A DNA stretch of 64,000 bases from contig OZ296649.1 in NCBI GenBank assembly GCA_965655095.1, forward strand, positions 49,600,001 to 49,664,000, given 5' to 3'. Positions 48,355 through 64,000 of this stretch are shown here, in pieces. Made by a program: the position numbers and the translations under genes. This stretch comes from Haplodiscus bocki. Taxonomy: Eukaryota. Numbering within the stretch: position 1 is the stretch's first letter; each line of letters starts with the position of its first letter. A model generated the notes under the pieces. That model did no database searches, was not told the origin of the DNA, and saw only the letters and a program-made list of their open reading frames with translations.

Positions 48355-48785
48355 TGATAGCGTATCAGTTATAATGATTCGGTGATGATCATGCCGAATG
48401 AAGAAAGCGAGTGAGTTCATCAAGTCATCTGCTACATTCACTCGCCTGCTTTATTCGTTCAGGATGATAGTGAAGTCGAAGCCTAAAAAAACGTGAACGG
48501 ATCTTCAAAATGTCTTGGGCAGATTAAAAATTTGATTTTCCGATCTGGCAGAAGGGTTTGCTAGTACTTGCAATAAAGTTTCATAAACTAGCAAACCTTT
48601 CATACAGATCGGCGGATTAAATTTCAATGGAGGAGATTTTAAAGATCTGTCAAGTTTTTTCGACTTCAGATTCAGTTATCATGCTCAATTAATAAAGCCG
48701 GCGGGAGAATTTAGAGGACTTGAGACGCTCACGCGCTTTCTTCATTCAGCATGATCATCATGACGCCATAACCAAAACACTATCA
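48355..48785. mobile_element. ~430-bp imperfect palindrome (foldback/MITE-like)
   Basis: Arms pair along their length: GATGATCATGCCGAATGAAGAAAGCGAGTGAG with CTCACGCGCTTTCTTCATTCAGCATGATCATC, and CGATCTGGCAGAAGGGTTTGCTAGT with ACTAGCAAACCTTTCATACAGATCG. Loop of ~20 nt near 48575. Confidence 0.85.
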
Positions 48786-49499: not shown

Positions 49500-52400
49500 T
49501 GACAAAACATCTAAACTTACTACGGAATGTTTTGTACTCTCTCACTACAACACGCGAGATTTTCAGGGAGCAATCCACTCCGCATTAGCTGATTCAACAA
49601 ATGAGCGCCACGTCTTCTCAGAGATGTATTAGGCGTTGAATTACCTTTTATAGGAGTATTAAAATCCCCTTAATCCATGCTCCGTATTTGAAGTGACGAA
49701 GATTCTCAGCCCGTGTTGAAAGCGTTGAGGTTCTCGAAACAATGTGATCTGAGAGACTTGGTGACCCTGATAGTCTCTTAGTGTATCATGATCGAAAACT
49801 AAAGATATTATCTTCTGCGAGCAATGCTTTCGATGGGAAAAACTTATCGAAACAAATTTGTAAAACAGGCATGTGGAATTACAACGGAAGTTTCATTTTT
49901 TTGCAGACGTCCATTCATAGATAAGTTCACCGTTTTGTAGATTCGGTTTGATGCATATATTGTAATACCGTAGAAGACTTCCTTGCACCAACGAACGGAC
50001 GCGCAGAACAACAAATAAATCGCTGCTTTTTTCTGAAGACGACATCATTATGAGCCTCAAATTTCAAAATACAGTTTACCAAAATGCCCAAATGTTCGAC
50101 AACCTCAGAATCTGATAGTATTGAATAACCAAACTTGAGATGAAGGTTTTGGTTTTCAGAATGAACCAACTGCGTTCTCCAGAAATTAAGGAAGAACCAA
50201 CTATTAGGAAACCAGGCTTGATTATCCTTCACCTTTTCATTTAGTTCCGTTTTAGTTTTCTCTTGAAGAACAATATTCGTGTCAACAGCGAGAAAAACTG
50301 GTAATTCATTCACGTGAAGAAAGAAGGGAAGAGGAGCAAGTATCGTGCCCTTTGGAAAAACAATCTTGCAGCAAGTCAGAGATGTGATATCCTTACCTAT
50401 TAACATTTCTTCTCTGGTCCATATACATGTTTTTGTCAAATAATTTCCTACATCCAAGACACCATAAAAATCTGACTGTCCCAGATTCTTTTTTCAATTA
50501 TGGAACACAAGCTTCTTTCAAATGCGAAAACAGGCGAAACATAATAAAGTTAGAACAACTAGAGACACTTTTCGCAGCTTCAGCTAAGGAATCAATCGCG
50601 TCATCATGCGCCCGAAAACAAAAATGATTGTCAGAAAAAATATTTGACGGCTCCAAAGACATGCTAATCGACTGCAGGAGGCGCAATCCCAGATTCTACT
50701 CAAACTGGAAGGATCAAAATCGTTCGAAAGAATTTTTTGTCGCATCGGGTAACATCTTTGAAAAACTGCACCATTCTCGCATCCTTAGAACAATGAAGAG
50801 AAGAAATGGCTCATAAAGTAAACCAGAGTTTTTGTTATCAACGGTGAGCTAACATTGAATATTGCAGCAGAGATGTTATCAAGTTTTCTCAATCGGTATT
50901 TTCAAAATCATAATAAACAGCTTCAATTCATGAACTGCAAAGAGGAACGTTGCTGACTATACGCTGTTGTCGACACGATTCCTAATGTTTTCCAGTTCAG
51001 TTTCAAAGATGTGTTTCAAAAATTTCATCCTGTGTAAGCAAATTCGTCAAAGAAAGTTTTTGAAAAATCAGTAAAAGTTTTAATCGATCGGCCAAATTTA
51101 TTATCAGCAGATAGCTTCGATTTTCGCTAATTTTTTCTAAATCGAAGTCAATTCTTTCCAAAACAAAAAGTTTTTACGCATAAATTGGCCAGAGCTTCCG
51201 CTACAGAAAATGCTTTTGCTCTGAGCTAAAACTTCATGAAGCTTTTTTTCCTCGCCGACCGATAAGTTGATAGTTTCGCCACTGACGTTGAAAATCGAAG
51301 ATGCCGATACAGTTGGTTTTTTGGTTTGAAGTTTTTTGTGAGTGTTGAGATACCAAAGGGCTTGCTTGATTTGCAAGTCCTGTTCCTTCTGCAAGTTATG
51401 AACATGTCTACCGTGTTTTTTTTTGGCTCACAAAGCTGCTGCAGGAAGAGTGGACAGTCAGTGTAGAATATCAGTAGCACAGAGCAGACTGTAAGAACTG
51501 AAAGTTTTTTTCGAAGACTTTCCCCTCTCAAAAAATATAGTCAGTAATATACTGCTCAGTGTTGCGTTCTTGCCGTTTCCGTAATAAAATCGGACAAAAG
51601 CTCCTTAGTGATCAGGTATTGATGAATCCGTAATCCAGTGCGTAAAAAATGACAGAAATTGTGCAAAAGATGATCTTGGTTTGTTTCGCTTTACCTTGTT
51701 CTCCTTGGCGTTTTGTTTAGTCAGTGCCAAAAAACCGTTCATAGGCAGTTTTTTACAATGCATTGAAACTACTCAAATAATAACAATATTAAATCTCCCA
51801 GATCAGAGCAAGGGATTCTGTTACTTCCAAATGCAAGCAGAAGATGCTCCAAAAAAAGCAAAATCATATCATGGCGTGGAGGTAAGGAATACACATATGC
51901 TAACAAGTTATCACATCAATCAGCTATGAGTTTGATCAAGCAAATCATATCATGTCAAAAGCCACAGGTTGATAAGTTACATCAATTGTAACAAAAATTG
52001 GAACCCCTCCGCTTCTGCTCAATCATTCTACTGTTGCCGGAACATAGTACTTCTTATATATAAACAGACTAGGCATCCGACCAAAACCTCATGGTTCTGA
52101 CAATTATAAAATGAAGGGTTTACCCGGGAGTTTGGGTATTTCGTAGGCAGTTTTGTCAAACTACGAAAGGACACATCGTCTGCTCAATTGCAAAATCCAC
52201 TCCACGCCATCTGTGTGACTCTTGAACAATAGAATTTGTTTTAGTGTAGCCTTCTTGCGCTCTAGTGGAAACTTACAAGAACCCCTTACAAAAGTGAAAA
52301 CTGCTTTTACAAACAAAAGTAAATTTAAGCTCAATTTGACTAAATTCGAAAAAATTTTCTGGAACCAGTTGTGGGTTATCAGTTTGAAAAACGAGCACTT

Positions 52401-52660
52401 CTCCGTTTATCATAATGACTGCAGCTACATCACTGCGTTGACGCAAGGTCTTTGCTGAATTGGCAATCACAATAGTCAAGTCGTCATCATTGAGGATTTT
52501 TTCCCCACATCCTTAAGCTTGTATTTACTCAATGAGCCCTACTTTTGTTTCCCTGGCAACAAACTTGACAGTAATGGGAAGCCCTTTCCCATTTTATCTG
52601 TATTACTGGGCACCCGGTGAGTAGTATAGGGGATGGGGCTGAGCAATCGAGGAAGTTGGT
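49500..52660 (-). mobile_element. Decayed near full-length LINE (CR1/L2-like): ORF1 remnant plus ORF2 RT remnant; boundaries approximate
   Basis: ORF1-type motifs PITVKFVARETK...KLK...NDDDLT...LRQRSDVAAVIMINGEVLV at ~52390-52590. RT motifs NIFSDNHFCFRAHDDAIDSL, FPKGTILAPLPFFLHVNELP, LAVDTNI and VEHLGILVNCILKFEAH at 49927-50686. Confidence 0.75.
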
Positions 52661-52664
52661 TGGG

Positions 52665-52871
52665 AAGCCAAGATATTAAATAGGCAATAGGGTTCGAATT
52701 GCAAACGAAGACTTACCCTTCAAGAAAGGTTACAGGCAAAATTTCACTGACGACGTTTGTCTAGTTACCAATATTGTAACATTCAATCCTCCTACGGATT
52801 CATTGGCTGACAAAAACGGTGAGAACATTCAAGGAAAGTTTTATGAACCAGAACTGATAAAAACTCGCTGA
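52665..52871 (+). pseudogene. Polinton retroviral-like integrase, C-terminal fragment
   Basis: KPRY*IGNRVRIANEDLPFKKGYRQNFTDDV...NPPTDSLADKNGENIQGKFYEPELIK fits the Polinton INT C-terminal pattern GDxVRI...FxKGY...PxTYxLxD..GE.IxGxFYExEL. Confidence 0.88.
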
Positions 52872-52873
52872 AA

Positions 52874-53730
52874 ATGGACGAATTTGATATCTATTTAGAG
52901 TCAACGGGTTCAATGCAAACATACCAAAACAACAAAATGGCATGCTTTCGCAACGCACTTTCTGAACCCCTACATTTGGATGGAGACTGGCGAGTTGCAT
53001 TGGCAGAAATTACTTTTTCTTCTAGTATCAAAAATGTAACAACCGAGGAATACTTCATTTACACACCTCGCACGGCGACAGAACTTTTGTCTAATCTCAA
53101 CCGCTCAGCTTCTGCAGGCGTGATAGTTCAACGGCCGGATTTTTCCAGCAACGCAACATTCCCAGACTGAGAAATTGAAAGCACAGAAATTACCTTGGAA
53201 ATAATAAAAAAGGGTACAATTTTCACCAAACAAATCCTGAAAGCAAGTTGTGAGCAGAAAACGTTTGAGCTGGAGTTTGCATAAGGCTATAGCATCAGTG
53301 TTCGAGACCGCAGCTTATTGGACGTTTTAGGATTTAGTGGTTTAACTGACACCCATCGAGGTGGATACTTCATCGGGAAGCACAACAGGATACGGAATCA
53401 AACACAGCCAATGAAAGGAGACTTTCCAGCCGATATACTTTGAGGAACAGAATTCTTTTTTTTAATTGCAATATCATCGAACAACAGCACGTTGCTGGCG
53501 CCAAAGCACCAATATTACGCGTCATTGATACAGGAAGAAAACTAACAGACGGTGAGCTCAATATCACATCTTCTACATTTCATAAAATTTTCACAGAGTT
53601 GCAAGTCAAAAAACTATTGTTGAATTCAGTCAGAGACGTTCACGTTGAGCTGGTTACACCTACTGGAAATTGCGTTCGTTTTGTTGGCACACGAAGAGTA
53701 ATTCTCACTCTAAAGTTTAGAAAGGTTTGA
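52874..53730 (+). pseudogene. Polinton minor capsid protein (penton), disrupted
   Basis: N-terminus MDEFDIYLESTGSMQTYQNNKMACFRNALSEPLHLDGDWRVALAEI; C-terminus CNIIEQQHVAGAKAPILRVI...VILTLKFRK. Internal stops near 53168 and 53282 and a frameshift near 53435. Confidence 0.87.
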
Positions 53731-53734
53731 AACG

Positions 53735-54101
53735 ATGGATAGTTATTACTCACGTCAAGCTATCATGCCTCATTTCACCGGCCATGCTCGTCAACGAGGT
53801 AGCAGGTTTGGACATTTAGCACTTGGTGTCGGACGCGTTGCAATGCCATTTGCGAAAAACGTCCTTCTACCTGCTGTTCAATGGATTGGTAAAGAGTTAT
53901 TTGGCCAAAGTTTACCAAAAATAATGGAACTTGCTACAAAGTAGAAATCTTTAAAACGAGCAGCAAAAGCTGCACTGAAGAAGATGGTCCAGAAGCAAAG
54001 AGGAGGGGGTGGGCGTAGAAAAAACAGAAAGTTTCGACAAAAACGCAAGCTACAGAGAAATCGGTCAGATTTCTTCTCTAAAATTAAAAAATGTTACCTA
54101 A
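53735..54101 (+). pseudogene. Small basic Polinton virion core protein (adenovirus pVII/pX-like)
   Basis: MDSYYSRQ...RQRGSRFG...; after one TAG it continues KQRGGGGRRKNRKFRQKRK...RSDFF. Has a YYxxQ motif, QxG motifs and an Arg/Lys-rich tail, and lies between penton and capsid. Confidence 0.7.
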
Positions 54102-55400
54102 CGTTCTACCGCTTGAAGAGTCGCATGTATCATTGGATCCATTCGAAAGACCCCTCGTTCTGATCACATTTGATACTTCATTTGAGCAGAAGGTTGGACC
54201 CCTTTATTCTCCAAACTGACTAACTTTAGAGTTGGACATAGTAGGAGGTAGAACCAACTTCATCGATTTACAGAACATCTACCTCGAGAAGAAGTGCAAA
54301 ATTCTTCATTGGACAGCAATAGGCTTCGTTTCACCACTGGAGATTTAGCGCAAGTGATTTACCCTTTTACGTCAACAACACATTACACTCGTTATTTTCT
54401 GATTGCAGTGTCTCTGCAAATGGCATCAAAAAATCTTCAACCAATGGAAACTATGCGTAGAAAGCTTTCATCGAGACAGAGTTTTCTCATAATAGAGAAG
54501 AAGCTAAGGACACATGGTTGAAATGTCAAGGATATTCCCACGAAAAATCACCCGACACTTCTACCGATTTTGTGTTTACAGAGTGTCAAAATGAGACAAA
54601 ACGGTTTGCAAAAGTTGCATATATTGGCAAAGTTGCAGCTGATAATTTTCTTGTGAGAAACATCTCATCAGCAGCGTAACCATCCGGGCATCTTTTCTCA
54701 GACATCGTCCCGAATTCTTTTTGATTTATGATGATTAATCTAAAGATTACAAGATTGAAATATCACAAGCAAGTTTGTATATACGTAAAACGACAGTTTT
54801 CGAAAATGTTTATTCTGCAATTGAAAGTACACTAACAAACACACCTGCAACCTACAGATAGACAGAAATCATACCAAAAACTTCTCTAGTTTCGACAGAT
54901 TCGGAAAGCTGGAGCCATGAGGACATTTTTAACCGCAAACCTATCCGACGTTTTGCTGTGGCGATGGCAACAAACAAAGCCTTCCTTGGCTCGGAAGCCC
55001 ACAACCCTTTTTACTACCAGAAGTTCAACCTAGAGAACATTACGGTGTACCGGAATGGTTATCCCATTGCTACAACAAAGCTACAGAGAAACAACGATAA
55101 AAACTTTACCTAAACCCTCTCGAGGCTCTTGCATTCGGATTTCACGGCCATGGTGTTCCATTTTCCGACTTTCCAAACCACTACGTTTTAGTATTCGACA
55201 TTACAAGTACCCAACAGGCTTCACACGACTATTTATATCCTGAGTTAACAAGCGGCTCCAAGTCAATTGATTTGCGCTTCTTAGCTGAAGCAACAGACTG
55301 CCTAGAGCTGTTCTTTCTGGGAGAAAAGACTTCAACAATTTACATCGATTCCATCCGTAAAGTATCGGAAAACATTTTTCTCGATACGAAGATTGATAGC
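54091..55400 (+). pseudogene. Polinton major capsid protein (double jelly-roll, hexon-like), disrupted
   Basis: MLPNVLPLEESHVSLDPFERP...GPLYSPN*LTLELDIVGGRTNFIDLQNIYLE; NNTLHSLFS; AFIET; ASLYIRK; AFLGSEAHNPFYYQKFNL; YVLVFDITST; LFFLGEKTSTIYID. Several stops and frameshifts. Confidence 0.88.
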
Positions 55401-55405
55401 AAGAA

Positions 55406-55831
55406 ATGTTCGATGAACTTGGGTTATGGAGAATTGTTAACAAATGTGCGCTCCTGAAAATTCAATTTGAGGGAGTTTATTCAGCAGATAAATTCTCTGT
55501 TACGCTCAGAGAAACTACTTTCGTTATAGTCAATTCAGACAATTCAGAAAAACATGGAACCCCTTGGCTGCTCCATTGCATTAGACAAAGCGAAAACTGC
55601 TTTGGCGACCCACTTGGTCTATCTTTTTAATCTTAACAGAACATTTGCGCTCGTTTGGATTCGAATGATTTAGGAATAAAGGAACTCAATTATCAGCTTC
55701 AGAAACCTACATCTAAGTTTTGCGGACTCTACTGCATATACATTGATCATTATGTGTTTCGTCCTTACTATGCTTTAAAACGTATGATATCAGAAGACGA
55801 GCTGCCCCAGTTTGTGAAGCATATTTTATGA
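55406..55831 (+). pseudogene. Adenain-like (C5) cysteine maturation protease, disrupted
   Basis: FEGVYSAD...IVNSDNSEKHGTPW (GxHW with His changed to Pro)...FGDPLG, two in-frame TAA, then QLQKPTSKFCGLYC (Q...CGxYC). Confidence 0.88.
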
Positions 55832-56144
55832 TTCTGTTGGCGCTACTTCTGAGGGCATTAGAAAAAATATGAAACAATAAAAAAGTTTGAAAACTGATAT
55901 CAAATCACGTAGTATCAACAGAATGTCATGTTTCAATCAACATATCAACACTGATAATTGTAACCTAGAACTTGTAAATTTAGATTTTCAAAAACTTCCT
56001 TTCCTATCCATAAAAACAAGGTTCAAAGCAGAGGACAGAGTGGAAAAGTCTTGAATTAGTTAGAAATTCTTAAAGGTTCAGGAAAAGACGCAGGATCAAT
56101 TCAAAAGTTTCAGAACCGTCGCTTAGTTTCCACTTTTTTGTTTG

Positions 56145-56557
56145 AACTGCAAAAACCACTCATGCTTTCAAATCGACTTTTTAAAGCTGTTTCAGAAGTT
56201 GCGGCGCAATTGTTGACAGCCTACCTGTAGTGAAAATCGGGAGATAGTGAAACACTTCAATTGAAGCATTTGAGAAAAGCACAACTTAAATTGAATTAGT
56301 TGAGACTTTGGTTGATTTTGCGGGTGCTTTATTCCGGAACCACTTTTCGGAAAACTGCAAAAACCACTTATGCTTTCAAATCGACTTTTTAAAGCTGTTT
56401 CAAAAGTTGCGGCGCAATTGTTGACAGCCTACCTGTAGTGAAAATCGGGAGATAGTGAAACACTTCAATTGATGCATTTGAGAAAAGCACAACTTAAATT
56501 GAATTAGTTGAGACTTTGGTTGATTTTGCGGATGCTTTACTCCGGAACCACTTTTGG
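56145..56557 (+). repeat. Two-copy direct tandem duplication, ~208-bp period
   Basis: AACTGCAAAAACCACT...TCCGGAACCACTTTT starts at 56145 and at 56353, with only a few substitutions. Confidence 0.92.
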
Positions 56558-56850
56558 GGTCGTTTCAGCGCTCCAGCAGTAGTTTCTCTTCTCTTTCCAG
56601 GTTGCGGTCCCATGTTAATGTTTTCCACGTTATTGATTAGCTCCTGAAACTCGGCAACTGTTAGTGTAACACGCTGATTAATGTAAAAAAGACCATCTGT
56701 TCTGTTTTTAAAGAGTTTCAGGAAAAGATAGGTTGTAGTACTTTCGTAGTTTTTTGTAGTGACTCTCAATATTCTTCTTTCAGTTTTCGAGATGTCGATG
56801 AAACTATCTCCGAACTCCTTTTCGATGGAAGAGGTGAAAGGTCGACTCAT
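56494..56850 (-). CDS. PC4-like ssDNA-binding protein of the Polinton (118 aa from the ATG at 56850)
   Basis: FIDISKTERRILRVTTKNY...YLFLKLFK...QRVTLTVAEFQELINNV has a PC4-type beta-strand/helix pattern and a basic tail. The frame is open. Confidence 0.55.
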   Translation of the reverse strand: MSRPFTSSIEKEFGDSFIDISKTERRILRVTTKNYESTTTYLFLKLFKNRTDGLFYINQRVTLTVAEFQELINNVENINMGPQPGKRRETTAGALKRPQKWFRSKASAKSTKVSTNSI

Positions 56851-57442
56851 TTTGGTTGAGCTAAAATTTGAAGTTGAAAAGTAGTGGAAAGGAGAGTCAG
56901 ACAAGGAAGTTAACTGAACGGAGAAACTAATTTAGAAAAACGTGAAAATTGGGTTCATGTGTTTACTTTCTGACCTAGCTCATAAACATCAATCAAAAAA
57001 TTAAACAAATCTAGGTTAATTACTATAATTACTAGCAAAGCGCACATCGTTGAAACCACAGCAACCAAATATGGAGCGAAGACATCTGATAAGAGCGTTT
57101 ATTTACAATCACATCGCAAAAAAATGATAGAGGCCGAAACATCAAACTTTTATTTTCGTACACATCGTCAACTTAAAAGAGATGTCTGGACCATGTTTGT
57201 AACCCAGCGTGATGAAAAATTAGATTTCTAGACTTTGTTTGAATTTACGTACGAAAACGTAGGTTTGTTGACATGCAAAAAAGTTTTTGTGGAACATATG
57301 ATAATCCAACAAAATAAAACAAATATTTTCATCAACAGTGAACTACTATCAAGTTCTTGTTTCTTTAACTATTCTATCAGACTTTATTTTTCGACAGAAC
57401 CAACTACTTGCTTTTTAAAGTCCTTGAAACAATTGTTCTGGA

Positions 57443-57901
57443 ATGAAAATTGATATTCAAACTTTTACTGACTTTAGCGATTATAATAGATACATATTTT
57501 ACGAAACTTGGTTCAATGATAAAATTGTTATTGTTATGGGGAAAAAAGATGGACGAAGATTGGCAAGTTATGACTTCAGTATCGTTACCAAGACCATTAA
57601 TGGAAGTCCTAAAACATCGGGTCCAAGAATTTCTACCAATTTTGGGAACGCTCTAACGTCAACCAACAATAGTCCAAATCGAAGAAATTCTACCAATCTC
57701 GAAAACGTCGAAACGTCAACCAATAGTTATCGAGCAAAAACAGTAGTCGATCGCTTGGAGTTACCGACGCAGGTCAAAAAGGTATTATTCAAGTGCGATT
57801 ATGAAAAAATACCATTGTCGGAGAATCAAATGGGGTCGTTCAGTGACCTAGAGACTCTTGAATGTTTCTGGGACAAAGTTAAGAAGAAGAATTTTAAATG
57901 A
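57443..57901 (+). CDS. Polinton orphan ORF, 152 aa
   Basis: Open ATG-initiated frame; its stop overlaps the next ATG (ATGA). No recognisable motif. Confidence 0.4.
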   Translation: MKIDIQTFTDFSDYNRYIFYETWFNDKIVIVMGKKDGRRLASYDFSIVTKTINGSPKTSGPRISTNFGNALTSTNNSPNRRNSTNLENVETSTNSYRAKTVVDRLELPTQVKKVLFKCDYEKIPLSENQMGSFSDLETLECFWDKVKKKNFK

Positions 57902-58116
57902 CGAAAGAAGTAACACTTCCATCACCTTTCGAGACACTGGTCAATGAAAACAGTACCAAAGAAAGTGAGTTGCTGGTTTATCAAGAGCCGAAAACAGAGG
58001 GAAACATTTCAAATGCTGATGTTTTTACGTGCCAACGACCGAAGACTCCTGAAACAATGGGTTCAAACGAAAAAGAGTGTCGTCCAGCTCCGAAGAAACC
58101 CAAAAAATCACAGTAG
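57898..58116 (+). CDS. Polinton orphan ORF, 72 aa, basic NLS-like tail (PAPKKPKK)
   Basis: ATGA overlap with the upstream ORF; low-complexity sequence. Confidence 0.3.
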   Translation: MTKEVTLPSPFETLVNENSTKESELLVYQEPKTEGNISNADVFTCQRPKTPETMGSNEKECRPAPKKPKKSQ

Positions 58117-58578
58117 TTTTAATGGAGTTTGGCGAACGACTCGAGTTCTCAGAGCTGCGAGAATGAGAAGCTGATTTTGGTATGAGCAATCAAAACTTGT
58201 AGTTTGTTTTTTTTTTTGGTATGTCGGAACTTTCGACTTAAACTTCCCCTTTTTTATACTTGAGCCGCAGCTTTTTGTATCACTGTTCAAGACAAGGGTC
58301 ATCTTCCGGAGGTCTTTTTCTCTTGAAGTAGAAAAGTCAATCTATGCAATTTAAAAGACGGAAATGACAGTGAACTCTAAATAAAAGACACCAGCGGGAA
58401 AGATTGTGGCAACACAGCACAAGCAAGCAGCCAGCTCAAGAGGAATTTCAAAATTTCAACCAAACAGAGAGAAGTGGCTAGGAAGATCTGAAAGAAGGAT
58501 TTCAAAAAGATTGAATATTTCAACCAATGAGAAAACAAAAGCATTTGTAACAGAAATTCACTTTCAATTCAATTCGTT

Positions 58579-61500
58579 CTGAAAACGCAACATCGTGATA
58601 TTTGTTCCAAAAGTTTTGCAAACCGACAAAACCTAAACCGACATCGCAAGAAAATTCATAGCTTGAACAAGAATAAATATGAAATATTCTGCAGTTCTTG
58701 TAATTTCAACTGTAAAACACTATTAGAAATGCAAGTGCACTTATCATCCCAACCCAATGGGAAGCCGTCACGGTTCTGCGTTTACTGTAAGAAAACTTTT
58801 CTGACGGAATCAGATTTCAGAAAACATCAACGGGAACAGCACTCACTTTCCATGCGTAATCAGACAGTTAAAAAAGACGACCGAAATATCAGTTCAGCTT
58901 TCAACAACACATTCAAATTTTTCAGAATTGGGGCGGAAGATAAACACGACCTGCTAGAATTTTTGCTTGAGAAGGAAACTCTGATTCGAGAAACTTTGAT
59001 GGAAAAATCACAACGAAAGCCAGTGAAAGTACAACTCTCAGTGAAACTTATTTTAAAAAAACCAATTGAAGAAGACACCGACAAGATAGAAGTTCATTTG
59101 AACACGGCTATGATTCCTGTTTTTGCTCAAGTTCTGGCAAAAGAAACACTTTTCGACAAAGTGTTTTCAACGTTATTATCCTTCACAGCGCATGGGAGTG
59201 GGTGGCTAGTGGACAAAATCAAAACTGTGGAATTGAAAATGGCTAATTCTGCACCGGTGAGAGGATCGTCTTACTTAGCTTTACCATCGGAATTGCAGGG
59301 AATACGGAGCCTGTTGAACATTCGCAACCATCTTGACAACAAATGCTTCCTCTACTGTTTTACAGCGGCTTACCACTTATTCTACAGTCCACCGTTACAA
59401 ACTGATACCTGACGAATAGCTACAAGTTCACCACTCTACAGCAGTAACAACCCTTCAGCTCAACAAGCAATAGGGGACTTTGACATGCGCATGGGATTCA
59501 AAAACATTGCAAACTTTGAGATTCTCGATAACGTACAAGTAAATGTTTTCAGATAGGAGAACAAACAGCTGTTCCCGTTGCGTTCATCAAAAAATTCGAC
59601 TTTGAGTTGACGCTGGACCTTCTTCTTTTACAAGACGACCAAACTTATCAATATGTTTTCATTACAAACATATTGAGCCTAGTCAATCACATTAAACAGA
59701 GAGGACCACGAAGTGATGACAAGTTCTGTCGTAACTGTTTTCACATTTGCTCACAGGAAAGTTGTATCAATCATCATAACAATCTTATGAAATTCGAGGC
59801 AGCAGCAATCGAACTGCCCGCATCAAATGCTGAAAAAGTTGATTTCAAAAACTTTAGTGCCCGAGCATACGCTCCAGTTGTTACATTTTTCGATTTGGAA
59901 TCCCTCATGATTCCCATACAAAGTTGTGATGATAATCCTTCAAGTAGCTGGGCTCGCAATTTGGAAAAGCACAGACCTTGCGGTTTTTGTCAAGTGATAA
60001 ATGAAAGCGGCTCATTGCAGCCGGTACATCTTTCTATAGATCGATCATCAACGTGCATGCAGAAATTGGCAATACATCTTAAAGCAATTGCAAGGGAAAT
60101 TTACCAGAGAAAGCAAACTCACCGCATCCACAAAGGTAGACCGGACTTTTCAAGTGATCAAATTACCGACTGTTGGATTTGTGAGAAGCCATTTCTCGAT
60201 GAGCTGAAGGTTCTATATCGCTGCGTTTTCACCGGAAAATTTCTAGGTTACGCACACGATCAATGCAACTTTAAACGATGAAGCATTAATTACATCCCGG
60301 TCATAGCACGTAACTCTTCCAACTACGACATACATAATTTATGTAAGGAGGTACATGAATTCGCGTCAGAATGCAAAATTGAACTTGTACCTGTTACCAA
60401 CGAAAAATATATCGGGGTAAAAATTGCTGTGAGTCAATTCTTATACAGATAAGAGAGGTTTCGTTAAAAACGTTTACGAGTATTTGAGGTTTATCGACTC
60501 TTACAGATTTTTACCCTCATCGTTGGAGAAGCTGGTCAGTTACCTGCTTACAGAATGTTTTCAAAAACTAGACAACTACTTTCAATTTTATCAGCCGATA
60601 GAAAGAGAGGTTTTTCGTCAGAAAAGATTTTATCCCTACAGTTTTTTCGATTCTTTCGCAAAGTTCCAGGAAAATCAACTTCCCCCTATAAACTATTGGA
60701 CCAACAGTTTTAGTGGCAGTGAAATTTGCTTGAATGTAGTGGAAGAATTCAGAAAGCTGTGTTATGACACATATGGTTTTGATAGCGCACATTATTTCAC
60801 TTGTTCTCACCTGTCAGGTATTGCTTTCAACAAAATTTGTCGAGCCGACCTACACTTTTTGACAGACCGTGAACACGTTACACGTTGAAATGGCCGAAAA
60901 TAAGATTGGAGGCGGTGTAGCTTCAATCTTCTCGAAACGATTTTTTAGAGCGAACAACAAGTACATGGACAACTTCAACTTTGATAATGAATCTGAGTTT
61001 TGGACTACTTCTCGACGCTAACAATTGATATGGTGGGGTTATGGAAAAACTACTTCTCCCTGTAAAAGACTTCCAGAAAGTTGAGATCCCCTCCAAGAAA
61101 TTCTCAATACGGATATCGATTCAGATGTTGGATATATTCTTGAGGTTGATCTGGAGTACCCCGACTACCTTCATGATCAACATAAAGATTTTCCTCTCGC
61201 CCGACAAAAGAAAACATTGAAGAAATGTTCCTGAGCGATTTTCAATTGAACCTACTTGAAAAAATGGGAGTAAAAAATGAATCACCAAAAACTGATGCAG
61301 GTACTGAGCAACAAAAGCAACTACACTGTGCATTATCTCGATTTGAAGCTGTATGTGGAAGTGGGCTTACTAGTAAAGAAAGTTTACAGAGTTCTGCAGT
61401 TTCGTCAATCACTCTCGTTACGCCCCACTATTTTGCTCAACACAGAAAATAGACAGCGGTTGGTTAACGAGTTCCAGGAAGGGTCCTTCAAGCTGACGAA

Positions 61501-62599
61501 CAACAACTACTATGGAAAGACTGTCGAGAGTAAGACAAACACAGTCCATGTGCAATTAAAACGATCAATCGACGAAGTGCAACGCGTCATTGATAAGTCT
61601 TTGATGCAATCATTCAAAATTTTTGACAAAAATTTAGCTGGCGTAACACTCAAACAAACGAAAAATTACTGGAAGAAACCAACCATTGTCGGAGCATGTG
61701 TGGTCGAACTTGCGAAATTTAGCATGTTCTCATTCCACTACAAATTTATGAACAATGCATTTGATTGTGAACTAATTTACTCAGACACGGACCCAATTTT
61801 CTACGAAATAAATCATGTTGACCCTTACAAAGAATTAGCGGAAAATGTAAACCGGCGAAAAAACTTCGATTTCTTAAACTACCCACAAAATTACCCTTTG
61901 TATCATAATGGAAACAAAATGGTTACACTTCTATTCAAAGACGAGATGGCGGGTAAAATTCTTGAAGAATTTGTCGGACTCAAGCCAAAAATGTACTCCA
62001 TAAAGTATGGAGGTAATCAAAGACTCTCCGGCAGGGGCGTATCTCGATTCGCACAGACAAATCTTAAACACGATATTTACAAAACAGTTTTATCAACCAC
62101 CAACAGCATTAGAACCAATAACATACGCATCGGACCTTCCCTTCATCAATTGGAAACTATTTCGAGCAGCAAAATATATTTGTCCGCTTTCGGTGATAAA
62201 CGTTACCTTTTAAAGAACGGCATCGAAACTTTACCATTTGGCCATTATTTGGTGGGAGACATAGTCGCTTTCCGTGAAATCTTAGCAGATCATGACTGGG
62301 GTGAGGAAATTGTTGCAAGTCCAGACTGGGAAACTTTAGTGAGAGAGTATGGCCCGAGTCAGTTCGATAACAGATCTAACAGAAGCCTTCCACGCCCAAA
62401 TACTCCACCTCGAGCTCGAAACGGTCATAACGACACCCTTAGTGAAATCTTGAATGATAGTTGGACACCACCAGATCATGGTTTCCATCAAGAAGGGCGT
62501 AATGAATTTGATTTAGATGACGATTGGTCGGTTCACTACCGACTTCTATGCAACCTATGGACAAAAAAATTCTACGTCTTTCAGAAATCCCAACATTGA
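58579..62599 (+). pseudogene. Protein-primed family B DNA polymerase polyprotein (3x C2H2, TP/vOTU-like region, exonuclease with EndoVII insert, polymerase), disrupted
   Basis: Motifs in order: GSGW...GSSYLALP...NIRNHLDNKCFLYC; ExoI FFDLES; CWICEKPF...TGKFLGYAHDQCN; NSSNYD; RFIDSYRFLPSSLEKL; FYPYSFFD; LDANN*YG; GYILEVDLEYP; KLTNNNYYGKT; YSDTDP; FKDEM; GLKPKMYS; DKRY. Multiple stops and frameshifts. Confidence 0.93.
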
Positions 62600-63199
62600 T
62601 GATGGAGCAGTTGAGGACGTTACAGGTGAGCTTGAAGAATTACCGCAACGAGAAAGACGTCATGATGTAATCCTGAGTTCTGGTGTAGGGTTTTAGTATT
62701 TTCATAATGAAGTCTCCTGAAACTTTAAGTATTTAACAAGTATTTTATGTTTTGATATGCTTCGTTTATTTCCTTGCCTCGCAATATTAATTAAAGCCAA
62801 AACAATTTTTCAAAAGTTCAACCAGACGGGAGTTAGTTGGGTAGACGCTTTTTCAAACTAGAGCTGCAATTCAAACAGCTTCTTATACCGTGATTTTAGG
62901 TTACGATTACCAAACAAAAAAACCGCGATACTAGATTTTTAGTGTCATAGGAAAGAAGAGAAAGAAAGACCACACACGCTTCAGCAGACACGCTACAAAC
63001 AGTTCGCAAGGGACGTTGCTTGATCAAGAGATTTGTTGATAACTTACGGAGTAAACTTTCTCAACTTTTGTTTACACAAAACACTTCAAGCACTCGAGAA
63101 ACTAGAAACAGAGGTAAAAGTGTTGGATTCACAACAGCAGTAGCTACAATTGGTCGGACTGTAGCGAATAACAACGAGAAGAGGACAGGAATTGAAAGT

Positions 63200-64000
63200 T
63201 GAAACATTTTTCATGCAAAAAAACAGGGTGAAAAATCAAGGTAACCCACTTGTGTCACTCCAAAAAGTTGCCCCGTAAAACTCCTTCAATGTTGAAATTG
63301 GTGGTACCAATCCCCACCCTGGGGGGATCTTGGTTGAGGATATATTTCGAAAAAAGTACAAAAAAAAGAGGGAGAAAAAACTTTTTTGCAAAAATTCAGT
63401 GAAAAAATTGCGCAAAACAACCTAAAACACTCAAGATTACTACCCTCAGAAAATCCACTTCATTGTGCTTCAAATGGTACCAAAAACCACCTTGAGGGGA
63501 TCTTGGTTGAGGAGAAATTCAAAAAAAACATTTGAAAAAATTTCAGAAACGGTCTTTATTTCGAAAAATTTGATGCAAAATCCATAAAAAGACAGGAAAA
63601 AAGCCCGTACGTGCCTAAAAACACCTCCACACACGTTTTCCTTCATCCAACAAGTCACTAGAGCCTGTAAAAGATGAGTTCGCGGTAAGGCTCGAACCCG
63701 TGAATTGCGACCTCCCAACCCCCTAAAAGGTCCTTTCTGATACAATTTAACCCCGGAACGTCGTTGTAGGGCTGACTTTCGAACGAACCCGGAAAAAAAT
63801 TTTTTCAAAACCCCTTAGTATTTATCCCAGGGGGCGCCGAACCAACGGCTGTCTATGAGAGGTGCTCCCGTCCGCCTTCAAACTCAATTACTCACCGTTC
63901 GCTTTAGCCTTAACCACTACACTACCGGGCCATTGATTTGCGTAAGTTTAATTGCTATATACACATATACTGCGCCCCACTTTTTATATACACATATACT
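63200..64000. repeat. Probable right terminal inverted repeat region of the Polinton (inner boundary approximate)
   Basis: Non-coding and homopolymer-rich. The motif GGTACCAA...CCACC(C/T)TG...GGGGATCTTGGTTGAGGA occurs at ~63304 and ~63476. Ends with TATATACACATATACT twice (reverse complement starts AG, the Polinton terminal dinucleotide). No partner TIR was seen in the window. Confidence 0.6.
63807..63931 (-). ncRNA. Candidate Pol III tRNA-like small RNA in the terminal region
   Basis: Minus strand GGCCCGGTAGTGTAGTGGTTAAGGC (A-box as in tRNA-Val) ... GGTTCGGCGCC (B-box-like) ... CTGGGA, then TTTT. Confidence 0.35.

Follow-up and report, generated by a model that had tools for sequence, protein, structure and literature searches.

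The locus raises the question of whether this stretch of Haplodiscus bocki DNA holds an endogenous Polinton with a nearly complete virion module, and whether it belongs to an undescribed lineage whose intact relatives could form virions, as had been proposed in a preliminary description. The window, i.e. the whole stretch that was analysed, comprises 64,000 nt (positions 49600001-49664000) of a 1.5-Gb genome. The element is very probably a dead copy, devoid of its left arm, of an old Polinton (Maverick) family. The host is likely an acoel. Full-length members of this family carry a gene for a predicted secreted or membrane-anchored EGFR ligand.

The copy starts with AGTAGT at position 52620 and ends with ACTACT 112 bp beyond the end of the window; the start at 52665 that was originally given was not borne out. 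Its length is 11.5 kb, compared with 16.5 and 17.2 kb for full siblings (n = 2 with both ends placed). The features are collected in Table 1. The family of the window copy is called family A here; family B is related to it, and family C is distant (MCP about 30% identical).

Table 1. Features of the Polinton copy and its flanks, in window positions; percentages are identities, and locations starting with L are in other retrieved regions
Feature	Position	Strand	Remarks
Interrupted host repeat	50727..52619	-	continuous paralogue L031: 79% to left flank, 85-90% to right flank
Host-DNA duplication, left copy	52555..52619	.	65 bp; right copy L011:113-178
Left terminus	52620..52638	+	about 19 nt of left TIR (AGTAGT start), fused to 3' end of integrase gene
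Integrase remnant	52638..52871	+	C-terminal 74/307 codons; 77% to sibling ORF
Minor capsid (penton) pseudogene	52874..53730	+	83% to sibling ORF; 3 stops, 2 frame pieces
Basic core-like protein pseudogene	53735..54101	+	overlaps MCP start; 81% to sibling; 1 stop
Double jelly-roll MCP pseudogene	54091..55409	+	80-84% to sibling ORF; 4 stops, 4 frame pieces
Cysteine protease (adenain/vUlp1-like) pseudogene	55406..55831	+	2 stops, catalytic His lost
Tandem duplication, 208 bp	56145..56555	.	single in compared siblings
Accessory ORF, 118 aa	56494..56850	-	82% to sibling, 54-56% to family B
Broken accessory ORF	57443..58173	+	common to family B
Protein-primed PolB pseudogene	58585..62696	+	N-terminal C2H2 zinc fingers, endonuclease VII insert
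Subterminal repeats, about 173 bp	63302..63528	.	2 copies here, more in several siblings
Right non-coding arm	63529..64000	+	continues 112 bp past window; right TIR L011:26-112 ends ACTACT

The gene order that had been described was recovered, i.e. INT-penton-core-MCP-protease-accessory block-PolB, co-oriented on the + strand and matching the sibling ORFs. The codon positions reported for the tight gene junctions are all present (INT stop 52869-52871, penton ATG 52874, penton stop 53728-53730, core ATG 53735), further ATGs lie at 54091 (MCP) and 55406 (protease), and the LDPFERP stretch is found about 15 residues into the MCP. The designation as a nearly complete virion module holds for the gene content, but not for its integrity: compared with the single open frames of siblings, every hallmark gene of the window copy has stops or frameshifts, and 74 of the 307 INT codons are left. 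The PolB gene has at least five stops, is split into several frame pieces, and lacks about 106 bp at position 60735 relative to the siblings. The 118-aa accessory ORF on the minus strand is the only open one; it had no assignment in Pfam, PHROG or PDB, and may be PC4-like. Pfam searches with 34 window pieces yielded only zinc fingers above the cut-off, and Rfam was blank for the window.

The identification as a Polinton is supported by the double jelly-roll MCP, the rve integrase, the AGTAGT termini and, in siblings, the A32-type ATPase and 6-bp TSDs. A model of a sibling MCP (pLDDT 85) matched the Sputnik MCP in Foldseek (5.9e-16, TM 0.66), and the fold matches virophage, PBCV-1 and iridovirus capsids. 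A sibling integrase ORF matches Pfam rve PF00665 at 3.5e-08, and the sibling ATPase matches Pox_A32 at 1.9e-04, just under the cut-off. For PolB, the family B orthologue, which is 41-46% identical to the window pieces, matches PF03175 at 1.2e-12; no PF03175 match was obtained with the family A PolB, and an endonuclease VII domain was seen in sibling PolB. PDB sequence searches were blank for the MCP, the protease, PolB and the minus-strand ORF. The protease was tentatively assigned from its position and its His-Asp-Cys/Gln pattern, which siblings and both other families have retained; profile searches in Pfam and PDB gave no match for it. The penton was named from its position and from what we take to be a penton motif, Pfam being blank and PHROGs giving matches of unknown function only. 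The core-like protein, presumably PZ/pX-like, had no profile match, and a related ORF is present in families B and C. The TIRs have (AGT)2//(ACT)2 ends, a terminal motif also described for the Mavericks of PMC8097293; the left TIR of the window copy is only a stub. An active ancestor would have been copied by the protein-primed PolB, integrated by the rve integrase with a 6-bp TSD, and its DNA would have been packaged with the ATPase, the MCP, the penton, the core protein and the protease.

The packaging ATPase, already reported as missing, is indeed absent from the window copy, because the left arm of 4.7 kb has been deleted there. Seven of nine fetched sibling regions align from exactly position 52638 and extend further leftwards within the element, by about 4.7 kb in those that include the left end. 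This arm contains an EGF-like ORF, an ORF that is presumably DEDD-like, small ORFs, the A32-type ATPase, and the remainder of the integrase. In the window copy, the left-TIR stub is joined to the integrase tail through a 1-nt microhomology.

The insertion lies in a host repeat that is likely a decayed LINE, as judged from what we take to be a LINE motif; Pfam was blank for the repeat at 50727..52619. The two copies of the 65-bp host-DNA duplication differ by three substitutions and one indel in 66 columns, and the stretch is single in the empty-site paralogue L031. A check of relatives for TIRs and 6-bp TSDs had been suggested at the outset, and AGTAGT/ACTACT termini were indeed found. Scoring was possible for 17 of the 22 family A end-pairs (five are without an end), two of which are possibly duplicates of other insertions: 12 have a perfect 6-bp TSD, four have one mismatch, and one has none. 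The window copy has the 65-bp duplication in place of the 6-bp TSD that is present, with at most one mismatch, in 16 of these 17 sibling end-pairs.

How could this scar have been formed? A defective genome whose left end was a stub may have integrated with uncoupled ends, which would leave a long duplication; aberrant integration has a retroviral precedent. We prefer this origin, albeit at slightly less than an even chance, and regard it as about equally likely that a normal insertion came first, and that repair or an exchange between two nearby insertions later produced both the duplication and the left-arm deletion. The exact left terminus (AGTAGT), the microhomology at the joint, which is typical of end joining, and the many subsequent rearrangements among siblings are compatible with such later events. 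However, a long flank duplication was found at 0 of the 17 sibling end-pairs, two rare anomalies would have to coincide at one end, and the exchange requires two insertions 59 bp apart. It is very improbable that the window copy is a member of a propagating, non-autonomous deletion derivative: both termini are retained, but none of 39 other matches crosses the deletion joint (40 of 71 candidates were scored). If the ends were uncoupled at integration, as we prefer to assume, the 65-bp duplication would be a rare natural example of this process. After its insertion, the copy probably decayed in a near-neutral manner. Apart from its unusual insertion scar, the window copy is a fossil Polinton of the ordinary kind.

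A DNA search with the MCP gene gave 43 matches at 40 loci, a lower bound for family A, the other loci being 68-91% identical. None of the nine copies examined, including the window copy, is intact; all have stops or frameshifts. In addition, no relative was found in IMG/VR, which was scanned with alignments of the EGF protein and of the MCP. The idea that intact relatives could form virions has thus found no support here. For comparison of the window copy with its siblings, dN and dS were estimated over 2339 codons and amounted to 0.090 and 0.139, respectively. The resulting dN/dS of 0.65 is below 1, and therefore some of the differences are older than the insertion. Between families A and B, synonymous sites were saturated in 9 of 10 comparisons. 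The broken copies, the dN/dS value and this saturation show that family A was once functional, then underwent a burst, and then decayed. In a coral metagenome of 2017, contigs cover the element but not its flank, and they are mostly 90-95% alike. Rearranged copies of family A were also observed: L024, L136, L137, L140 and L144 have a second right terminus inside the outer one, and sibling L013 (5247-9946) has four or more tandem copies of a unit of about 1 kb that consists of the 5' part of the integrase gene and the upstream ORF.

Among the 9220 proteins retrieved with the MCP profile, a small group stands at the top and is set off from the rest by a drop. A quick MCP tree with 66 rows groups the three families and proteins of Convolutriloba macropyga in one long-branched clade of 29 rows (SH-aLRT 100), and 12 named insect and echinoderm proteins with 26-31% identity fall outside. 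The tree was a quick search without vertebrate Mavericks and RepBase references, and part of the separation is built in, because the rows were chosen by profile score. The sole named members of the clade are those of the acoel Convolutriloba, with 56-59% identity; they are found in RefSeq as "F54H12.2-like" (XP_075253281.1 and relatives), annotated only as uncharacterised host proteins. The likely acoel nature of the host was deduced from these named MCP relatives. Family A is likely part of a separate capsid lineage, which is likely acoel. The proposal of a divergent, undescribed lineage is therefore supported with respect to divergence, for the MCP clade stands apart from insect and echinoderm proteins in a tree that contains no vertebrate references. 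It does not hold in that the lineage is not wholly uncatalogued: the Convolutriloba proteins are in RefSeq, and xenacoelomorph Polintons have already been counted, Jeong et al. (PMC10748475) giving 28 pPolB1 Polintons in two xenacoelomorph genomes. We found no Polinton study dedicated to acoels in the literature.

The PolB of family A shows no or a weak PF03175 match, is 22-24% identical to the PolB of family C, and contains an EndoVII insert. Such inserts are linked to group 1 Polintons. On its features (C2H2 fingers, endonuclease VII insert, no PF03175), this PolB may fit the Beta class of Starrett et al. (PMC8502044). Among the Polintons/Mavericks (class Polintoviricetes), family A most resembles the Beta adintoviruses or group 1 type of that paper: in its gene set (INT, ATPase, putative penton, core protein, MCP, putative protease, PolB), its AGTAGT...ACTACT ends, its 6-bp TSD, its length of 16.5-17.2 kb, the predominance of decayed copies, and a PolB with a weak match or none to PF03175. 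In contrast, family A has a separate long-branched MCP clade, all hallmark genes on one strand, and an EGF-like accessory gene, and the window copy differs further by the missing 4.7 kb and the 65-bp duplication.

Several observations were made on families B and C. An HUH-like protein was seen in both, and was not detected in family A. Family C contains an ORF without a Pfam match that we take to be PLA2-like (L084:4906-5328) and another (L084:3759-4448) that is weakly related to the minus-strand accessory ORF and exceeds it in length. The PolB gene of family B is interrupted between two codons by 198 nt that resemble a GT-AG intron (L091:5347-5544), and several family B matches are split there; intact vertebrate Mavericks have been reported to be intronless (PMC8097293). 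Family C elements (L095-L130, L148-L151) have nested ends, i.e. an outer AGTAGT end, an array of repeats of about 30 bp, and an inner family A terminal sequence, and these inner ends match the family A terminus despite a PolB of another class. A count of the terminal 15-mer gave 735 occurrences, versus 2 for the control, and most terminal-motif pairs are inner ends of family C.

The EGF-like gene cannot be seen in the window, because it is located in the deleted left arm, of which it is the first ORF in siblings. It has one exon and encodes 103 aa with a hydrophobic leader, a linker, and a single EGF domain (Pfam EGF 6e-05). At 35 of 39 other family A loci it lies upstream of the MCP gene. A protein search gave at least 150 matches, and all 150 scored candidates matched. 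The gene is not confined to family A: family B also carries it, 18 of 18 hand-picked divergent matches lie in Polintons of family C, and in 6 of 6 family C elements checked it lies beside a PolB that is 22-24% identical to that of family A.

The six cysteines of the EGF domain have a spacing of 7-5-10-1-8, identical in 18 of 18 open copies compared. All three families retain a G-x-R-C motif, and the protein ends only 5-7 residues after its sixth cysteine; the N-terminus has one hydrophobic segment (KD 2.1-3.0). Within family C, the domain has a dN of 0.061 and a dS of 0.239 (dN/dS 0.25), and between families pN is 0.33 and pS 0.93-0.96. These sequence comparisons indicate that the gene is under purifying selection. 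An EGF homologue search returned 1668 proteins, and the profile gave 29 matches against PDB, comprising 27 ErbB ligands, one EGF-like venom peptide and one Notch. We found no report of an EGF gene in Polintons in the literature, although subscription papers, RepBase and bioRxiv supplements could hold one; "EGF" is absent from the supplements of PMC8502044 and PMC10748475, as far as these were accessible, and from the texts of PMC8097293, PMC11131425 and PMC11296320.

Which role could this protein have had? It probably worked as a viral growth factor on the host EGFR. Receptor L-domain exons are present in the host genome at two loci (G000:C4:6757116, C5:26348804-26389417), and the two that were tested match EGFR best. 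Less likely, with a chance of about one in four, it was not an agonist but blocked the receptor or served as a decoy, or was a general-purpose EGF module for attachment or entry; the mere 5-7 residues beyond the last cysteine, the weak structure model (pLDDT 62) and the little phylogenetic signal ascribed to EGF domains in PMC4914847 lend this alternative some weight. Yet a single six-cysteine EGF motif behind one hydrophobic segment corresponds to the layout that the same paper gives for EGFR ligands (one such motif plus a signal or membrane segment), the profile places ErbB ligands far above Notch-type modules, and the G-x-R-C motif has persisted in three families. It is still less probable that family A was a parasite of a poxvirus-like helper from which the growth-factor gene was taken. 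The top 2 of 85 fold matches of the EGF model are poxvirus proteins, one of them a named growth factor, but their E values are above 1 and the model is poor. Moreover, TAAATG is not conserved at 12 gene starts of family A or 7 of family C, and poxvirus late-promoter wiring was not found in either; the check concerned the late-promoter motif only, with starts placed by N-terminal motifs, and the motif occurred once, in one copy of one gene.

A viral growth factor acting on EGFR has counterparts in poxviruses. Vaccinia VGF and the 80-aa protein of rabbit fibroma virus are likewise short, with a hydrophobic leader and one EGF domain of the EGFR-ligand type. The differences are that the EGF gene described here resides on an integrating element of 17 kb in an invertebrate, that neither its sequence nor its fold gave a significant link to them (E above 1 for the fold), and that the role is predicted. 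VGF activates EGFR and promotes poxvirus spread (PMC13705586), and neoblasts of the acoel Hofstenia reach wounds through neuregulin-EGFR signalling (PMC13046036). By analogy, the Polinton protein might have drawn dividing stem cells, a route to the germ line, towards the producing cells, a proposal that we make tentatively and consider somewhat less than evenly likely. It is possible, again at rather less than an even chance, that acoel Polintons combine a capsid lineage of their own with a growth-factor virokine, which would be the first described from any Polinton. This EGFR ligand would have been kept across families with different polymerases and would have recruited pluripotent neoblasts, thereby opening the way to the germ line.

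Host-type genes have been found in other Polintons: the nematode Maverick cargo of Widen et al. 2023, as cited in PMC11131425, consists of proteases and kinases, whereas the gene described here encodes a predicted signalling ligand under purifying selection across families with different polymerases. Such selection on a secreted or surface ligand is understandable only for an element that influences cells other than its own. The debate on whether animal Polintons are transposons or viruses that also live outside the cell is still argued mostly from capsid genes. If the proposed role is true, the EGF-like gene would be functional evidence that Polintons act between cells, like viruses, and would have its parallel in the growth factors of poxviruses, an unrelated class of viruses. 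It also offers a testable handle in an animal group in which EGFR signalling controls stem-cell recruitment.

Outside the Polinton, positions 6030-47759 of the window are taken up by about 20 tandem units, each about 2.09 kb long and 95-97% alike; the unit had no Rfam or Pfam match. An imperfect inverted repeat of about 380 bp at 48383-48760, which is also matched in L016, is likely a MITE.
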